In this document: piece by piece, positions 3,413 through 52,700 of the stretch
Layout of the letters: each line of letters begins with the position of its first letter
Numbering within the stretch: the stretch's first letter is position 1
Assembly (NCBI GenBank): GCA_964016885.1
Contig: OZ024747.1
Span: forward strand, 85,622,001-85,686,000
DNA length: 64,000 nucleotides
Source: Eledone cirrhosa
Lineage: Eukaryota
Direction: 5' to 3'
Notes under the pieces: generated by a model
What the model saw: only the letters and a program-made list of their open reading frames with translations
Told to the model about the DNA's origin: nothing
Databases searched by the model: none
Position numbers and translations under genes: made by a program

Positions 3413-3589
3413 CTAGGACAACAGAAATAAACCATTTCATTAATTAATTAATGTATGTATTAATACACACACATACATTCACAGACACATATATAATACA
3501 ACAGACTAGTTATATCGCTAATAGAACTGGAGCAAGGCTACTGCCAGCATGTCCAGCAAAAGCAATATGAAATAGATGGCACAATACTA

Positions 3590-4240
3590 GATATAGCTCT
3601 ACAGAAAATCCTGGAGCTGTCAGTAAAGTGAGATTAGGTAATGGGTTTAGTGAGAGTAGGTAATGGGTTTAGTGAGAGTAGGTAATGGGTTTAGTGAGGA
3701 ATTCAATATACAGATAGTATCCATCAGGGCTCAGATCTCAGCCCACTATTGTTTATTATAGTTCGCCATGTCATAACAGAAGAGTTTATGCTTGGCTGCA
3801 CATGGTAACTTCAATATACTGATGACTGAGTTGTCATTGCTGAATCTGTGGAAGAGCTAGAGAAAACATTTCAGTTTTGGAAACAGAATTAAGAATTAAA
3901 TGGGCTTTAAGTAAATTTGGGAAAAAATAAAGTCTTAGTGAGTGGGAAAGGTGATGAGATCCCAATCTCTTCGAGGAAGTGACCTTACTCGTTATGTAGA
4001 AAAGGAGTAGATAGAAACTCTATATGATGTACAAGAGGTGTATTGGGACAGCAGGCAAACTAACAGAAAAGAATGACTTTGTATGTAGCAGATGCACAGG
4101 GATAATTGGTAGTAAAAGAATCAGTGAAGAAAATGTTTTCCAATCCAAGGATCCATAGAAGTTGTTGATAGCTTGTTACCTAGATGACACAAGTAGCAAT
4201 AGAGGAGATTGCTCTGGGAGCAGAGTAGTCAGAGTAGTCC
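3590..4240 (+). mobile_element. Degenerate RTE-clade LINE RT fragment (WBP2 intron 6)
   Basis: Homologous to the 12100-12870 and 24720-25020 fragments (HQGSDLSPLLF; WPCSxC zinc-finger region). Contains a 22-bp triplication at about 3636-3698. Confidence 0.75.
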
Positions 4241-25747: not shown

Positions 25748-27865
25748 AGTAGTGGTGGTGGTAGTGTTTGTAGTAGTGGTGCTGGTGGTGTTTGTAGTAG
25801 TGGTAGTAGTGGTGGTGGTGGTGTTTGTAGTAGTGGTGGTGGTAGTGTTTGTAGTAGTGGTAGTAGTGGTGCTGGTGGTGGTAGTGTTTGTAGTAGTGGT
25901 GCTGGTGGTGTTTGTAGTAGTGGTAGTAGTGGTGGTGGTGGTGGTAGTGTTTGTAGTAGTGGTAGTAGTGGTGCTGGTGGTGGTAGTGTTTGTAGTAGTG
26001 ATGCTGGTGGTGTTTGTAGTAGTGGTAGTAGTGGTGCTGGTGGTGGTAGTGTTTGTAGTAGTGGTGGTGGTGGTGTTTGTAGTAGTGGTGCTGGTGGTGG
26101 TAGTGTTTGTAGTAGTGGTGCTGGTGGTGGTAGTGTTTGTAGTAGTGGTGGTGGTAGTGTTTGTAGTAGTGGTGCTGGTGGTGGTAGTGTTTGTAGTAGT
26201 GGTGGTGGTAGTGTTTGTAGTAGTGGTGGTGGTAGTGTTTGTAGTAGTGGTGGTGGTAGTGTTTGTAGTAGTGGTGCTGGTGGTGTTTGTAGTAGTGGTA
26301 GTAGTGGTGCTGGTGGTGGTAGTGTTTGTAGTAGTGGTGCTGGTGGTGGTAGTGTTTGTAGTAGTGGTGGTGGTAGTGTTTGTAGTAGTGGTGCTGGTGG
26401 TGTTTGTAGTATTGGTAGTAGTGGTGCTGGTGGTGTTTGTAGTAGTGGTGATGGTGGTGTTTGTAGTATTGGTGCTAGTGGTGATGGTGGTGTTTGTAGT
26501 ATTGGTAGTAGTGGTGCTGGTGGTGTTTGTAGTAGTGGTGATGGTGGTGTTTGTAGTATTGGTGCTAGTGGTGATGGTGGTGTTTGTAGTATTGGTAGTA
26601 GTGGTGATGGTGGTGTTTGTAGTATTGGTAGTAGTGGTGATGGTGGTGTTTGTAGTATTGGTAGTAGTGGTGCTGGTGGTGTTTGTAGTAGTGGTGATGG
26701 TGGTGTTTGTAGTATTGGTGCTAGTGGTGATGGTGGTGTTTGTAGTATTGGTAGTAGTGGTGCTGGTGGTGTTTGTAGTAGTGGTGATGGTGGTGTTTGT
26801 AGTATTGGTGCTAGTGGTGATGGTGGTGTTTGTAGTATTGGTAGTAGTGGTGCTGGTGGTGTTTGTAGTATTGGTAGTAGTGGTGCTGGTGGTGTTTGTA
26901 GTAGTGGTGATGGTGGTGTTTGTAGTATTGGTGCTAGTGGTGATGGTGGTGTTTGTAGTATTGGTAGTAGTGGTGATGGTGGTGTTTGTAGTATTGGTAG
27001 TAGTGGTGCTGGTGGTGTTTGTAGTAGTGGTGATGGTGGTGTTTGTAGTATTGGTGCTAGTGGTGATGGTGGTGTTTGTAGTATTGGTAGTAGTGGTGCT
27101 GGTGGTGTTTGTAGTATTGGTAGTAGTGGTGATGGTGGTGTTTGTAGTATTGGTAGTAGTGGTGCTGGTGGTGTTTGTAGTATTGGTAGTAGTGGTGCTG
27201 GTGGTGTTTGTAGTATTGGTAGTAGTGGTGATGGTGGTGTTTGTAGTAATGGTGCTAGTGGTACTGGTGGTGTTTGTAGTATTGGTAGTAGTGGTGATGG
27301 TGGTGTTTGTAGTATTGGTAGTAGTGGTGATGGTGGTGTTTGTAGTAATGGTGCTAGTGGTACTGGTGGTGTTTGTAGTATTGGTAGTAGTGGTGCTGGT
27401 GGTGTTTGTAGTATTGGTAGTAGTGGTGATGGTGGTGTTTGTAGTAATGGTGCTAGTGGTACTGGTGGTGTTTGTAGTATTGGTAGTAGTGGTGCTGGTG
27501 GTGTTTGTAGTATTGGTAGTAGTGGTGCTGGTGGTGTTTGTAGTATTGGTAGTAGTGGTGCTGGTGGTGTTTGTAGTATTGGTAGTAGTGGTGATGGTGG
27601 TGTTTGTAGTATTGGTAGTAGTGGTGCTGGTGGTGTTTGTAGTATTGGTAGTAGTGGTGCTGGTGGTGTTTGTAGTATTGGTAGTAGTGGTGATGGTGGT
27701 GTTTGTAGTATTGGTAGTAGTGGTGCTGGTGGTGTTTGTAGTAATGGTGCTAGTGGTACTGGTGGTGTTTGTAGTATTGGTAGTAGTGGTGCTGGTGGTG
27801 TTTGTAGTATTGGTAGTAGTGGTGCTGGTGGTGTTTGTAGTATTGGTAGTAGTGGTGCTGGTCGT
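25748..27865. repeat. GT-rich minisatellite, ~33-bp unit GGTGGTGTTTGTAGTATTGGTAGTAGTGGTGCT with shorter variants
   Basis: Direct tandem periodicity. Explains the 730-769 aa ORFs. Confidence 0.95.
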
Positions 27866-28041
27866 GTTTGTACTCATGCTGGTAGAGGCTGTAGTGGTGG
27901 TGATGGTAATGGTAAAGGCTGTAATAGAGATGCTGGTGGTGTGACCACATCTAGTTCGTACATCCCATTTTGACATGGCCTCCATAGTCTGATGCCCTTC
28001 TCAACTGCATCCAAGCATTAGAACTCAGTATTTCCCATTAA

Positions 28042-29299: not shown

Positions 29300-29499
29300 N
29301 NNNNNNNNNNNNNNNNNNNNNNNNNNNNNNNNNNNNNNNNNNNNNNNNNNNNNNNNNNNNNNNNNNNNNNNNNNNNNNNNNNNNNNNNNNNNNNNNNNNN
29401 NNNNNNNNNNNNNNNNNNNNNNNNNNNNNNNNNNNNNNNNNNNNNNNNNNNNNNNNNNNNNNNNNNNNNNNNNNNNNNNNNNNNNNNNNNNNNNNNNNN
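29300..29499. other. Assembly gap (200 N)
   Basis: Run of n characters. Confidence 1.
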
Positions 29500-30565: not shown

Positions 30566-33160
30566 GGTGGTGTTAGTGGTTGTAGTACTAGTGGTAGTGT
30601 TGGTAGTGGTGTTAGTGGTTGTAGTATTAGTGGTAGTGTTGGTAGTGGTTGTAGTACTAGTGGTAGTGTTGGTAGTGGTGTTAGTGGTTGTAGTACTAGT
30701 GGTAGTGTCGGTAGTGGTGTTAGTGGTTGTAGTACTAGTGGTAGTGTTGGTAGTGGTGTTAGTAGTTGTAGTGTTGGTAGTGGTGTTAGTGGTTGTAGTA
30801 TAGTATTAGTGGTAGTGTTGGTAGTGGTGTTAGTGGTTGTAGTACTAGTGGTAGTGTTGGTAGTGGTGTTAGTGGTTGTAGTATAGTATTAGTCGTAGTG
30901 TTGGTAGTGGTGTTAGTGGTTGTAGTACTAGTGGTAGTGTTGGTAGTGGTGTTAGTGGTTGTAGTATAGTATTAGTGGTAGTGTTGGTAGTGGTGTTAGT
31001 GGTTGTAGTACTAGTGGTAGTGTTGGTAGTGGTGTTAGTGGTTGTAATACAAGTGGTAGTGTTGGTAGTGGTGTTAGTGGTTGTAGTACTAGTGGTAGTG
31101 TTGGTAATGGTGTTAGTGGTTGTAGTATAGTATTAGTGGTAGTGTTGGTAGTGGTGTTAGTGGTTGTAGTACTAGTGGTAGTGTTGGTAGTGGTGTTAGT
31201 GGTTGTAGTATTAGTGGTAGTGTTGGTAGTGGTGTTAGTGGTTGTAGTACAAGTGGTAGTTTGGTAGTGGTGTTAGTGGTTGTAGTACTAGTGGTAGTGT
31301 TGGTAGTGGTGTTAGTGGTTGTAATACAAGTGGTAGTGTTGGTAATGGTGTTAGTGGTTGTAGTATAGTATTAGTGGTAGTGTTGGTAGTGGTGTTAGTG
31401 GTTGTAGTATTAGTGGTAGTGTTGGTAGTGGTGTTAGTGGTTGTAGTACAAGTGGTAGTGTTGGTAGTGGTGTTAGTGGTTGTAGTACTAGTGGTAGTGT
31501 TGGTAGTGGTGTTAGTGGTTGTAGTATTAGTGGTAGTGTTGGTAGTGGTGTTAGTGGTTGTAGTACTAGTGGTAGTGTTGGTAGTGGTGTTAGTGGTTGT
31601 AGTACTAGTGGTAGTGTTGGTAGTGGTGTTAGTGGTTGTAGTATTAGTGGTAGTGTTGGTAGTGGTGTTAGTGGTTGTAGTACTAGTGGTAGTGTTGGTA
31701 GTGGTGTTAGTGGTTGTAGTACTAGTGGTAGTGTTGGTAGTGGTGTTAGTGGTTGTAGTACTAGTGGTAGTGTTGGTAGTGGTGTTAGTGGTTGTAGTAC
31801 TAGTGGTAGTGTTGGTAGTGGTGTTAGTGGTTGTAGTACTAGTGGTAGTGTTGGTAGTGGTGTTAGTGGTTGTAGTACTAGTAGTAGTGTTGGTAGTGGT
31901 GTTAGTGGTTGTAGTACTAGTGGTAGTGTTGGTAGTGGTGTTAGTGGTTGTAGTACTAGTGGTAGTGTTGGTAGTGGTGTTAGTGGTTGTAATACAAGTG
32001 GTAGTGTTGGTAGTGGTGTTAGTGGTTGTAGTACTAGTGGTAGTGTTGGTAATGGTGTTAGTGGTTGTAGTATAGTATTAGTGGTAGTGTTGGTAGTGGT
32101 GTTAGTGGTTGTAGTACTAGTGGTAGTGTTGGTAGTGGTGTTAGTGGTTGTAGTATTAGTGGTAGTGTTGGTAGTGGTGTTAGTGGTTGTAGTACAAGTG
32201 GTAGTTTGGTAGTGGTGTTAGTGGTTGTAGTACTAGTGGTAGTGTTGGTAGTGGTGTTAGTGGTTGTAATACAAGTGGTAGTGTTGGTAATGGTGTTAGT
32301 GGTTGTAGTATAGTATTAGTGGTAGTGTTGGTAGTGGTGTTAGTGGTTGTAGTATTAGTGGTAGTGTTGGTAGTGGTGTTAGTGGTTGTAGTACAAGTGG
32401 TAGTGTTGGTAGTGGTGTTAGTGGTTGTAGTACTAGTGGTAGTGTTGGTAGTGGTGTTAGTGGTTGTAGTATTAGTGGTAGTGTTGGTAGTGGTGTTAGT
32501 GGTTGTAGTACTAGTGGTAGTGTTGGTAGTGGTGTTAGTGGTTGTAGTACTAGTGGTAGTGTTGGTAGTGGTGTTAGTGGTTGTAGTATTAGTGGTAGTG
32601 TTGGTAGTGGTGTTAGTGGTTGTAGTACTAGTGGTAGTGTTGGTAGTGGTGTTAGTGGTTGTAGTACTAGTGGTAGTGTTGGTAGTGGTGTTAGTGGTTG
32701 TAGTACTAGTGGTAGTGTTGGTAGTGGTGTTAGTGGTTGTAGTACTAGTGGTAGTGTTGGTAGTGGTGTTAGTGGTTGTAGTACTAGTGGTAGTGTTGGT
32801 AGTGGTGTTAGTGGTTGTAGTACTAGTAGTAGTGTTGGTAGTGGTGTTAGTGGTTGTAGTACTAGTGGTAGTGTTGGTAGTGGTGTTAGTGGTTGTAGTA
32901 CTAGTGGTAGTGTTGGTAGTGGTGTTAGTGGTTGTAGTATTAGTGGTAGTGTTGGTAGTGGTGTTAGTGGTTGTAGTACTAGTGGTAGTGTTGGTAGTGG
33001 TGTTAGTGGTTGTAGTATTAGTGGTAGTGTTGGTAGTGGTGTTAGTGGTTGTAGTACTAGTGGTAGTGTTGGTAGTGGTGTTAGTGGTTGTAGTATTAGT
33101 GGTAGTGGTGTTAGTGGTTGTAGTATTAGTGGTAGTGTTGGTAGTGGTGTTAGTGGTAGT
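30566..33160. repeat. 39-bp minisatellite GTGGTAGTGTTGGTAGTGGTGTTAGTGGTTGTAGTACTA with a 945-bp higher-order duplication
   Basis: Tandem units. Diagnostic variants recur at a 945-bp offset. Confidence 0.95.
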
Positions 33161-33419
33161 GGTTTTAGTGATAGTTAGTGGTGTCTGTGGTAGTATTGTT
33201 GATGGTAACACCATTAGATATACAGTCGAAAGTGGTGTTGGTAGCAGTAGTAGTGGTGTTGGTGGTGGTTTTTGTGTTGGTGGTAGTGTTGTTGATATTG
33301 GTGTTGGTGGTATTGCTAGTGGTGATATTAGTATGGATGGTAGTTATAGTGGTATTTATGTGTTTCTTAGGGGTGGTGGTGGTGGTGGTGGTTGTGATAT
33401 TGGTATGTAGGTGATAGGA

Positions 33420-35324: not shown

Positions 35325-35427
<103 letters not shown>

Positions 35428-35934
35428 AGGATGAATATAAAATGAAAGTGCTTTTGTTAAAAAAGGAATTTATTAGGTATTGACATATGTTTCTGTAACA
35501 GACCGAATACCTATGTATCGCTGCTTGCGTAATCATATAATGTTAGCAAGTATTCGATAGCAAATGTATAATCAGTTGTCACTTCTTCAGAGATTTTGGA
35601 TAAACCTGCACGTACGCTGTTCATCTCTAACGTAACGATATATTATCACTACATTATTGATAACCTGAAATTTTATATATATATATATATATATATATGT
35701 CTGATGGTAGCTAAGATGGTTCCATAGGCGATATGCCAGTTGAGCACTCTATGTTCTTACAGAGCAGAGTATGATATAATAGAAAACGAAAAATCAGTGA
35801 TGCATCAGGGTTTATTTCAAGGTACCAAAAGTTTGTTTTATAAATATTGAGATCTTAACGGTTCAAGTTTTTCCTGGATAGTCAGGAAAAACTTGAACCG
35901 TTAAGATATGTCAATATTTATAAAACAGACTTTG

Positions 35935-35995
35935 TATTTTATCTGATGAGAGCATACCAAAGTTTTGGTGCCCTTGAAATATATATAATAGAATA
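35935..35995 (+). ncRNA. Minimal type-I hammerhead ribozyme candidate (PLE-type)
   Basis: Stem I TATTTTAT/ATAGAATA, core CTGATGA (35943), stem II around GCA-ACCAAA/TTTGGTGC, GAAA (35976), 2-bp stem III with palindromic ATAT loop, AUA cleavage triplet. Confidence 0.65.
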
Positions 35996-36161: not shown

Positions 36162-36412
36162 ATAGGAAAATGTTTGACCCTGACGGCAGAGCTCAAGCCG
36201 TTTCAACGGCTATTTCTGGACTAAATTAGAATTTTTAGCGTGGTAATTTACCACGCTAAAAATTCTAATTTAGTCCAGAAATAGCCGTCGAAGTGGCTTG
36301 AGCTCTGCCGTCAGGGTCAAACATTTTCCTATTACCCACTCTACTACCCTAAGTATTGAGTACTCTGGTGCGTTATGGTCCATCTGGTTCCTTACCACAC
36401 CTCCTTCGTTAT
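36162..36412 (+). mobile_element. Fold-back element: 171-bp palindrome plus conserved tail (putative inverted PLE terminus)
   Basis: 85-bp arms, 1-nt loop at 36247, 3 mismatches. Tail TACCCACTCTACTACCCTAAGTATTGAGTAC... is shared with the 37553 element. Confidence 0.75.
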
Positions 36413-36838
36413 GTATATATAGATATTTTGGGTCATGCGGCCAAATAAAAACACACACACCAGTGAGTTTTACTTTAGTTTATTATTAGTTAGGTAACTA
36501 ATCCATTCCTCAGTTAGTTTGTCATATTTGATTATCAAAGCTCTTTTGTCACACATCTGTGGCCTTCTCAACAACTAATCTTGCTCCTCTGTATCTCCTC
36601 TTTGTTCCGATCTTGTTCTGTTTACTCCATCTTGTCTTCTCTGAGGTGCGTATGTAGTCTGTGCATGCATGTGTGTTTGTGTCTGTGTGTATATCTCTGT
36701 ATGCTGCTACTTCCACAGGTTTCTGTGTTTGTCATGTGTATGTGTACCTATGTATCTAAAAAGCAATTACATAAGATCAACAGCCAAGTGCATTTCTATG
36801 TCGTCAGCCAGCTGCTGTCATGCAATTTCACAGTTTAA

Positions 36839-37552: not shown

Positions 37553-37557
<5 letters not shown>

Positions 37558-37750
37558 AACGAGTAGGACCCCGACAGCTGAGCTCAAGCCGTTTCAACGG
37601 CTAATTCTGGTCCAGAATTAGCCATTGAAACGGCTTGAGCTCAGCCGTCGGGGTCCTACTCGTTCCTATTACCCACTCTACTACCCTAAGTATTGAGTAC
37701 TTTGGTGCGTTATGGTCCACCTGGTTCCTTACCACATTTCCTTCGTTATA
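37553..37750 (+). mobile_element. Fold-back element: 117-bp palindrome plus the same tail, in (TA)n
   Basis: 58-bp arms, 1-nt loop at 37611, 2 mismatches. Contains GAAACGGCT-TGAGCTC-AGCCGTC (hammerhead 3' half). Confidence 0.75.
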
Positions 37751-41738: not shown

Positions 41739-41990
41739 TCATCATCATCATCATCATCGTTTAACGTCCATGTTCCATGCTTGCATGGGTTTGGACGGGA
41801 GTTTTCCCACTTGAGGCAAGAGTGGTTGTCTTGCTCGCATAGGACTGTCTGGCGGGTTTTCTACAGTTGGATACCCTTCCTAACACCAACCACATTTACA
41901 GTGTGGGGCTGGGAGGTTTTTACTGTGTTGCCTACACGGCCACATTACAGCGTGGACTGTCTGGCGGGTTTTCTACAGCTGGATGCATAT

Positions 41991-42027
<37 letters not shown>

Positions 42028-42030
<3 letters not shown>

Positions 42031-42294
42031 TATTTTCCGTTGTGTTGTAATATAAATATTACACACAGTAGATTATCAGCTCACGTAGAGTTTGCTCGAC
42101 GGTTCCAGTTGTAGTTCCAAAAGTAATCCGGAGAAAAATAGAAAGATTTGAATGGATACAGTTTAGTTGAAAGGAATTTATTGACACGTGTTTCTATAAC
42201 AGTTACATAACCTAAAACAGGTTATGTAACTGTTATAGAAACACGTGTCAATAAATTCCTTTCAACTAAACTGTATCCATTCAAATCTTTCTAT
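42028..42294 (-). mobile_element. Fold-back element: perfect 157-bp palindrome plus unique tail, in (TA)n
   Basis: 76-bp perfect arms (42138-42213 and 42219-42294) with an AAAAC loop. Arms contain GAAAC-ACGT-GTC (hammerhead stem III with GUC). Confidence 0.75.
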
Positions 42295-42717
42295 ATATAT
42301 ATATATATATATTACACCTCTCAAAGGCGATGACACACGACCGTGACCTCTGGCGTCACGCAGTAATACAGAGTACCCGACCTCCCATGGGTACAAGCTG
42401 AAGCATATAGACAATATGCCCCCACACCCCCCACTGCAAGGTGGTCGTGGAGGTGCCACGGCAAAAAAGCACCCAGCCCACACTGTAAAGTGGACGTGTA
42501 GGCGCCACGAAAAAGCACCCAGCACTCACTGTAAATGAGGTTGGTGTTAGGAAGGGCATCCAGCAGTAGAAATCAAGCCAAATCAGTTCCTGTAGGAGCA
42601 AGGCATGGTCAGCCGACCAGACACTGCCCACAACAGGACAACCCGTCTAACCCATGCTAGCGTGGAAGAACGGACGTAAAACGGTGATGATGATGATGAT
42701 GATATATATATATATAT

Positions 42718-49752: not shown

Positions 49753-52700
49753 CATATATACACAATATACTCACACACACATATACACCATATAGACACA
49801 CATAATATACTCACACACACATATACACCATATAGACACACATAATATACTCACACACACATACACACCATATAGACACACATAATATACTCACACACAC
49901 ATACACACCATATAGACACACATAATATACTCACACACACATACACACCATATAGACACACATAATATACTCACACACACATATACACCATATAGACACA
50001 CATAATATACTCACACACACATATACACCATATAGACACACATAATATACTCACACACACATACACACCATATAGACACACATAATATACTCACACACAC
50101 ATACACACCATATAGACACACATAATATACTCACACACACATATACACCATATAGACACACATAATATACTCACACACACATACACACCATATAGACACA
50201 CATAATATACTCACACACACATATACACCATATAGACACACATAATATACTCACACACACATATACACCATATAGACACACATAATATACTCACACACAC
50301 ATACACACCATATAGACACACATAATATACTCACACACACATATACACCATATAGACACACATAATATACTCACACACACATATACACCATATAGACACA
50401 CATAATATACTCACACACACATACACACCATATAGACACACACATAATATACTCACACACACATATACACCATATAGACACACACATAATATACTCACAC
50501 ACACATATACACCATATAGACACACATAATATACTCACACACACATATACACCATATAGACACACATAATATACTCACACACACATATACACCATATAGA
50601 CACACATAATATACTCACACACACATATACACCATATAGACACACATAATATACTCACACACACATACACACCATATAGACACACATAATATACTCACAC
50701 ACACATATACACCATATAGACACACATAATATACTCACACACACATATACACCATATAAACACACATAATATACTCACACACACATATACATCATATAAA
50801 CACACATAATATACTCACACACACATATACACCATATAAACACACATAATATACTCACACACACATACACACCATATAAACACACATAATATACTCACAC
50901 ACACATATACACCATATAGACACACACATAATATACTCACACACACATATACACCATATAGACACACATAATATACTCACACACACATATACACCATATA
51001 AACACACATAATATACTCACACACACATATACACCATATAAACACACATAATATACTCACACACACATACACACCATATAAACACACATAATATACTCGC
51101 ATATGCACATATACACCATATAGACACACACATAATATACTCACACACACATATACACCATATAAACACACATAATATACTCACACACACATACACACCA
51201 TATAAACACACATAATATACTCACACACACATATACACCATATAGACACACATAATATACTCACACACACACATATACACCATATAGACACACACATAAT
51301 ATACTCACACACACATATACACCATATAAACACACATAATATACTCACACACACATACACACCATATAAACACACATAATATACTCACACACACATATAC
51401 ACCATATAGACACACACATAATATACTCACACACACATATACACCATATAGACACACACATATACACCATATAGACACACATAATATACTCACACACACA
51501 TATACACCATATAGACACACATAATATACTCACACACACATATACACCATATAGACACACACATAATATACTCACACACACATATACACCATATAGACAC
51601 ATAATATACTCACACACACATATACACCATATAGACACACATAATATACTCACACACACATATACACCATATAGACACACCCATAATATACTCACACAGA
51701 CATATACACCATATAGACACACACATAATATACTCACACACACATATACACCATATAGACACACACATAATATACTCACACACACATATACACCATATAG
51801 ACACATAATATACTCACACACACATATACACCATATAAACACGCATAATATACTCACACACACATATACACCATATAAACACACATAATATACTCACACA
51901 CACATATACACCATATAGACACACATAATATACTCACACACACATATACACCATATAGACACACATAATATACTCACACACACATATACACCATATAGAC
52001 ACATAATATACTCACACACACACATATACACCATATAAACACATAATATACTCACACACACATATACACCATCTATCTATCTAAGGCGGGTAAAATTCCC
52101 GAGATCCATGGACGAGTTCTCTCCAGCGGTCTCTGTCCCTCATTATCGCTGCCATATCCTGCATCTCCAACAGACCAGTGTCTGTCCTTAGGGCATCAAC
52201 ATATGTTAACCTTGGTCTTCCTCTTCTAGTGTGTCCATGTAGGGGCTCCCAAAGGAGCACTGAGTGCAATGTCAACTCTGGATGTCGGTGAGCATGTCCA
52301 GCCAACCTCAATCTCCTCTGTGTCACTTTTGAGCTGACTTTTGGGATGCTCCCATACAGCTCTGAGTTTTTCATCCTCAGTGTATACTGATTAATGTTCA
52401 GAGCCATCCTCAGCATTCTCGTGTCTATATACACCATATAGACACATAATATACTCATATATAATATACTCATATATAATATACACCATCCTCAGCATTC
52501 TCGTGTCTATATACACCATATAGACACATAATATACTCATATATAATATACACCATATATAATATACTCATATATAATATACACCATATATAATATACTC
52601 ATATATAATATACACCATATAGACACATATACACCATATAAACACACATAATATACTCACACACACATATACACCATATAGACACACACATAATATACTC

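Follow-up and report, generated by a model that had tools for sequence, protein, structure and literature searches.

Craig et al. 2021 (PMC8557442) describe Penelope-like elements (PLEs) of the Hydra clade as carrying the motifs RWK and DKT, a CxCX5C linker, no CCHH and CxxC/CxH, and as inserting into (TA)n. The clade includes Hydra-1_Obim and Penelope-13_HM, the latter with an inverted 5'-truncated copy, and both inverted truncated copies and a one-sided tail of 30-40 bp are given there as general PLE features. In Poseidon_Ac (Frangieh et al. 2024, PMC11167929), as demonstrated or modelled there, two internal starts delimit the tail, both strands are cut, uncleaved RNA is the template and a dimer is predicted. 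The literature thus already covers inverted arms, the tail, the targeting of TA and a pair of start sites. No published account of twin priming or twin hairpins in PLEs was found in the open-licence literature, from which older PLE papers may be missing. In L1 twin priming, two primed cDNAs from one RNA are reportedly joined by microhomology, which produces an inversion. In L1 the second primer can pair at any place within the RNA, and there is no overlap between the resulting two parts.

Here we describe a palindrome from Eledone cirrhosa that is very probably a recent insertion, truncated twice, of a PLE of 3.57 kb with Hydra-type motifs. In it, the 3' end of the element is present in duplicate, head to head within a TA repeat, and twin priming is the likely origin. 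Both arms match the parent element, one end is short and the other tailed, the junction has 2 nt of microhomology, and the hammerhead core is absent.

The palindrome and its parent PLE

The window, that is, the whole stretch of 64,000 nt that was analysed, is microsatellite-rich animal DNA, and genome searches were made against the 3.0-Gb assembly. The palindrome is perfect, with arms of 76 nt each (42138-42213 and 42219-42294), no mismatches and a loop of 5 nt (42214-42218). It is the longest perfect hairpin among the matches listed with the assembly N gap (29300-29499) left out; the runner-up, of 41 nt, lies at 36206-36288. GAAACACGTGTC begins at 42238 on the plus strand; its minus-strand mirror copy occupies 42183-42194. 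The centre, at 42216, is 22 nt upstream of GAAA.

Two truncated copies of one element account for these parts. The long arm (42028-42220, minus strand; unit positions 3532-3724 by BLAST map) is a 5'-truncated PLE 3' end that runs from the interior of hammerhead stem II across the cut site to the tailed end point. It contains the left palindrome arm (42138-42213, minus strand) and, between both fixed end points, the unpaired tail (42028-42137, minus strand; 110 nt), which corresponds to the parent's 5' leader preceding the ORF. Counting the TA shared with the target, the stretch between the mapped end points is 118 nt. The tail stretch is predicted to fold (z -3.2), and a bulged hairpin (42093-42133, minus strand) lies in it 5 nt behind the short end point. 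The short arm (42219-42294, plus strand; unit positions 3539-3614) is a second 5'-truncated copy, which stops at the short end point, 45 nt past the cut position. Between the arms, the inversion junction (42214-42220; locus L113) consists of the 5-nt loop and the 2-nt microhomology (42219-42220) common to both. (TA)n target repeats lie on the left (41987-42027), joining the tailed end of the long arm, and on the right (42292-42312). By exact pattern, the tailed junction occurs in 1,095 genomic places and the short end point in 1,499.

These coordinates bear out the initial annotation as to the faultless 76-nt arms, the (TA)n on both sides and the one-sided tail of about 110 nt. The tail is not unique sequence, as had been stated, and belongs to the PLE, since the arm 22-mer has 3,647 exact genomic matches (reversed control, 0). 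The event had also been judged recent, which is upheld by the long arm: read from 42220 to 42028 on the minus strand, it is identical at 193/193 nt to a full-length unit (L050). The short arm is identical to the parent at 76/76 nt.

Many matches of the arm 22-mer occur as a minus copy followed by a plus copy 0.2-4.9 kb away, or in tandem at a spacing of about 3.56 kb. The parent is a tandem unit of 3,569 nt (L050) with an ORF of 782 aa, and many other copies have open frames of 785 aa. Scoring of genomic matches to 300 aa of the parent protein was confined to the best among 34,095 candidates, which favours young copies; of the matches scored, 131/131 were identical at 99-100%. Motifs and atlas neighbours indicate that the single ORF encodes a reverse transcriptase (RT) followed by a C-terminal GIY-YIG nuclease. 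The RT motifs include RWK (VRWKT), DKG changed to DKT (ADKTS), and YRDD. The CxCX5C linker reads CNCTYPDNC, and the IIY..YVG core lacks CCHH and has one C between IIY and YVG. In a 785-aa copy (L122), CxxC is CKLC and CxH is CRH. The atlas neighbours (0.96-0.99) agree loosely, being proteins of animals that are assigned to the families HTH_animal, GIY-YIG or RVT_1. Searches of the parent protein against Pfam (0 families) and PDB gave nothing informative.

The parent inserts into (TA)n: nearly all mapped outer ends run into TA repeats, and two run into (CT)n. The family also displays PLE insertion architecture, with 5' truncation, an inverted truncated copy, tandem units and a tail at one end. 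The parent matches the Hydra clade of PLEs, where it is placed by motifs and not by a tree. The family is young and numerous and has many identical intact ORFs, so that it lends itself well to studying the way in which PLEs produce their inverted arms and a tail on one side. As far as sequence can tell, the palindrome is a head-to-head pair of 5'-truncated 3' ends of this 3.57-kb PLE and not a separate ribozyme element.

Hammerheads of the parent and of related elements

The short arm retains the 3' strand of hammerhead stem II (42229-42236, plus strand), followed by GAAA, the palindromic stem III, the GUC cut triplet (42247-42249) and the 3' strand of stem I (42238-42254, plus strand). Missing from the window copy are the CUGANGA core (CUGAUGA in the parent) and the 5' strands of stems I and II, and no CTGANGA occurs on either strand between 41197 and 43000. 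The tail's CTGATAA was considered as a core and rejected, as no stems fit by eye. GAAAC-ACGT-GTC was correctly recognised in the initial annotation as part of a genuine type I hammerhead motif, of which it is the 3' half. The proposed search for CTGANGA upstream in other copies found CTGATGA about 95 nt upstream, so those copies are not coreless. The core region was present upstream of 92 of the 102 stem III motifs in the fetched loci, CTGATGA was intact in 86 of these 92, and a core-bearing 22-mer has 2,276 exact matches genome-wide. The label of a third ribozyme family does not fit the window copy, a stub that lacks the catalytic core and derives from a PLE coding for protein. The stub is an ordinary remnant that retains only the rear half of the hammerhead motif and has neither ribozyme nor coding function; in a transcript, the hammerhead remnant would be expected to be locked into a 76-bp helix.

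Full-length copies, judged by their conserved motif, carry a type I hammerhead, for which self-cleavage is predicted. In the parent, stem I has 5 bp, basal stem II has 8 bp and stem III is an 8-nt palindrome, and CUGANGA, GAAA and NUH are all present. The roughly 86 nt of stem II form an irregular hairpin (z -3.9; 0/200 shuffles). At its base (10.1/11.1), the parent arms have A.A in 83/92 cases, A-U in 8/92 and G.A in 1/92, and the G10.1-C11.1 pair is absent. Rfam gave no hammerhead family among 135 weak matches in the whole window, and for the parent hammerhead region it gave two chance matches and did not recognise the hammerhead. Hammerheads with a long stem II thus escape Rfam. The short arm begins at a possible 3' splice site AG. 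Copies with an intron-less stem II number 0 genome-wide against 2,276 core-bearing matches; an intron in stem II is nevertheless a possible reading, since PLEs retain introns.

Cleavage by the hammerhead was considered as the source of 5' ends and rejected, because five truncations at the cut site compare with a rough background of 3-4 per position (hand estimate). These are the only arms ending there genome-wide (16 matches, of which 11 are point changes), and there is no pile-up. Such a small number is in line with uncleaved RNA as the template (Frangieh 2024). Three of the five arms (L210, L213 and L214) sit in tiny palindromes centred at the cut position. Elsewhere, 5' truncations cluster at the 5' edge of the core, at unit positions 3455-3465 (L075, L076, L084, L093, L096 and L069), about 30 nt behind a TATA-like box, and a second cluster lies about 40 nt upstream, at unit positions 3416-3423 (L059, L078, L080, L027, L072 and L070). 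These clusters possibly reflect the RNA 5' end.

The window holds further insertions of this type. At 35425-35673 there is a two-armed stub of a sister Hydra-type family, with a short-ended arm that has a whole CUGAAGA hammerhead and a tail-only arm. This family has 1,982 matches, a 3,294-nt unit and 72% protein identity to the parent. Its hammerhead has a stem II of 88 nt, whose first pair is changed from A-U to G-C, and a stem I of only 1 bp; a run of 7 nt within stem II is able to pair with the bases that follow the cut position. The stubs at 36162-36415 and 37553-37750 belong to a third Hydra-type family (parent L236), with 27,597 matches of a tail 24-mer, a 3,543-nt unit and 45% protein identity. 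Its hammerhead has a core of the U3-A8 variant, and the stem II, of 54 nt, has a z of only -1.4. The architecture shared with these two elements had been noted from the window alone, and they are indeed the same kind of object, their parent being likewise Hydra-type. Short palindromes with CTGATGA motifs at 35852-35907, 35945-35990, 40844 and 41197 resemble compact PLE hammerheads of other families, although a crude scan with strict stem limits returned none of them. Long, strand-skewed minisatellite arrays lie at 25752-27872, 30567-33175 and 49756-52072 (units of 33, 39 and 40 nt).

End points, hairpins and the origin of the inversion

Sister insertions were sampled from the surroundings of the first 100 arm 22-mer matches, which fall in the first 89 Mb of C1. 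One locus, L064 (C1:58194900-58199500), was dropped; it has two short-end pieces of 100 nt in the same direction, 2.7 kb apart, in a satellite array. Apart from a few irregular ones, the outer ends of the sampled insertions fall at two points, +45 (short) and +163 (tailed) from the cut position. Both ends are at fixed points in 38/41 two-armed insertions, and in 38/38 of these one end is short and the other tailed; the remaining 3/41 have one irregular end. About a third of the sampled insertions have a single recognisable arm, mostly short-ended. The tailed arm of L047 and of L096 consists of nothing but tail and breaks off almost precisely where the short end point lies, as though the RT that set out from site 2 had halted where the other starts.

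The arms of one insertion share their subfamily class in 25/25 testable cases (33% expected), with mean differences of 1.2 against 5.5. Arms range continuously in length from below 100 nt to more than the full unit, and the lengths are uncorrelated within insertions (rho 0.07); the tailed arm reaches further 5' in 21 cases and the short arm in 16, with three ties (n=40). The shared subfamily, the uncorrelated lengths and the fact that either arm may be the longer suggest that each arm is an independent cDNA of one RNA or source element. The inversion centre had been placed in stem II, which holds for the copy at 42028-42294 and not as a fixed place, as sister junctions are spread over the whole 3.57-kb unit.

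Each end point is followed 5-8 nt later by a bulged hairpin of the form CUC-stem-loop-stem-2-nt bulge-GAG-YA, an arrangement seen in all three families; in the present family and the sister family the hairpin begins 5 nt past a UA. The first copy is the one in the tail of the window insertion. The second lies just past the tailed end in the parent and is absent from 42028-42294. In the third family (36162/37553) the site-2 hairpin is seen in read-through copies at 6/20 loci, the other 14 having ordinary ends or unrelated flanks. A descriptor of the hairpin, written from the very sequences on which it was run, matched both sites in 3/3 parents, with one further sense and two antisense matches in 10.4 kb (0.15-0.3 expected per unit). 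The bulged hairpin is not the minimum-energy fold in 4/5 isolated stretches. Since the descriptor and the sequences are the same material and the fold is mostly not the most stable one, we infer, rather than observe, that the hairpin is a candidate start signal for the reverse transcriptase.

We propose that the element's GIY-YIG nuclease would cut both strands of (TA)n, and that each broken end would prime reverse transcription on uncleaved element RNA. One start would be 45 nt downstream of the position cut by the hammerhead, and the second some 118 nt beyond the first. Either would adjoin a UA able to pair with the target, with a bulged hairpin following a few bases later. The two cDNAs would end prematurely within the long stem II and would then be joined. 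A more specific version, towards which we lean slightly, is that the leaders of Hydra-clade PLEs carry the bulged hairpin twice. A dimer of the RT-nuclease would bind one hairpin per subunit, cut both (TA)n strands and initiate a cDNA on each broken end, at a point a few bases upstream of the respective hairpin. The tail would then be the distance between the hairpins, and every two-armed insertion would have one short and one tailed end. If this is true, the stub at 42028-42294 is the smallest record of the reaction.

A single cDNA might instead have given rise to both arms. Having started at the tailed site and stopped in stem II, it would have snapped back on an inverted match of 2-4 nt, copied itself to the short end point and joined the TA repeat. 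The arm ends here are 7 nt apart with a 5-nt loop, and 11 genomic palindromes are centred in the same 30-nt stretch, several of them on a native 6-nt palindrome. Near-symmetric junctions, a class that includes the window copy, are about 7-fold in excess (3/40 against 0.43 expected, P 0.008), which makes such an origin possible for 42028-42294. A rare parental variant (L009/L010) would even supply a 4-nt inverted match; this ACCT/AGGT seed was found in 0/92 sampled arms and in only two places (L009/L012 and L010/L015), and the junction overlap is accordingly taken as 2 nt. The snap-back account fails for the 16/40 insertions in which the short arm is the longer, as such an arm cannot be a copy of the tailed one. 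Nor does it account for copying back that ends precisely where independent short arms also have their end. We regard it as doubtful for this locus.

It is very improbable that a small ribozyme element, retrozyme-like or MITE-like, multiplies on its own as a 267-nt unit. Near-identical stubs do exist elsewhere (C4:355282159, 98%), and Li et al. 2026 (bioRxiv) describe retrozymes as derivatives of PLEs that are not autonomous; the accessible part of PMC13282606 mentions neither Hydra nor hammerhead. Against multiplication as a unit, there is no core on either strand, arm lengths are continuous, the parent codes for RT and EN, and the 11 look-alikes differ in their junctions and subfamily variants, which indicates that they arose separately. 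A non-LTR retrozyme, made of non-coding tandem monomers with a whole hammerhead, was rejected, as the parent is coding and the window copy is inverted and coreless. An assembly or library artefact, such as a fold-back chimera of a long read, would suit the perfect arms. The listing of public runs with matching sequence contained no RNA run. In contigs of four of the 21 listed public runs, the parent tail and arm are present with no joint or piece across the centre; short-word contigs cannot resolve a repeat palindrome. The different single flanks on each side, the junction microhomology, the rule of one short and one tailed end and the short arm's stop exactly at the family's fixed point all speak against an artefact, which we consider highly unlikely.

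Comparison with known PLEs and with L1

The present family resembles Hydra-clade PLEs in its RT followed by GIY-YIG, its (TA)n targets, its 3'-end hammerhead, its inverted truncated copy and its one-sided tail (PMC8557442). It is not Hydra-1_Obim, from which both hammerhead and protein differ when compared by eye. Hydra-clade elements are generally under 3 kb (PMC8557442), whereas the parent unit has 3.57 kb, the greater length being due to a microsatellite-rich 3' UTR of about 1 kb. The tail is likewise longer, at 110-118 nt against 30-40 in Hydra-clade PLEs (PMC8557442).

The parent hammerhead is like the dimer-type PLE hammerheads of Cervera and de la Pena 2014 in its core, its 5-bp stem I, its 8-bp basal stem II and its palindromic stem III suited to dimers. 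It differs from them in lacking G10.1-C11.1 and in its very long stem II, and the window copy is without the 5' half. Many Hydra rows of File S2 in Craig et al. 2021 (PMC8557442) have U.U at the 10.1/11.1 position. Loop 2 has 3-10 nt in 26/26 Hydra rows of that file, which covers canonical motifs only, as compared with the stem II of about 86 nt found here.

The family statistics make the model of two starts and twin hairpins testable, and the end rule, the shared subfamily of the arms and the hairpin behind each end point translate into mutations to test in a Frangieh-type assay. In contrast to L1 twin priming as outlined above, the two PLE arms start from fixed sites next to each other, and the same 3' region is duplicated in them. 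Poseidon_Ac likewise has two internal start points that delimit the tail and AT-rich targets, and its uncleaved template fits the small number of 5' ends at the cut site (PMC11167929). The available part of that study does not state a rule of one start per arm and reports no strand difference in vitro. Homology between start and target was not found by Frangieh (PMC11167929); in the present family, by contrast, 3-5 nt are common to (TA)n and each of the two end points. Poseidon_Ac belongs to a different clade (PMC11167929), and starts sited at UA, each followed by a bulged hairpin, are a feature of the present family.
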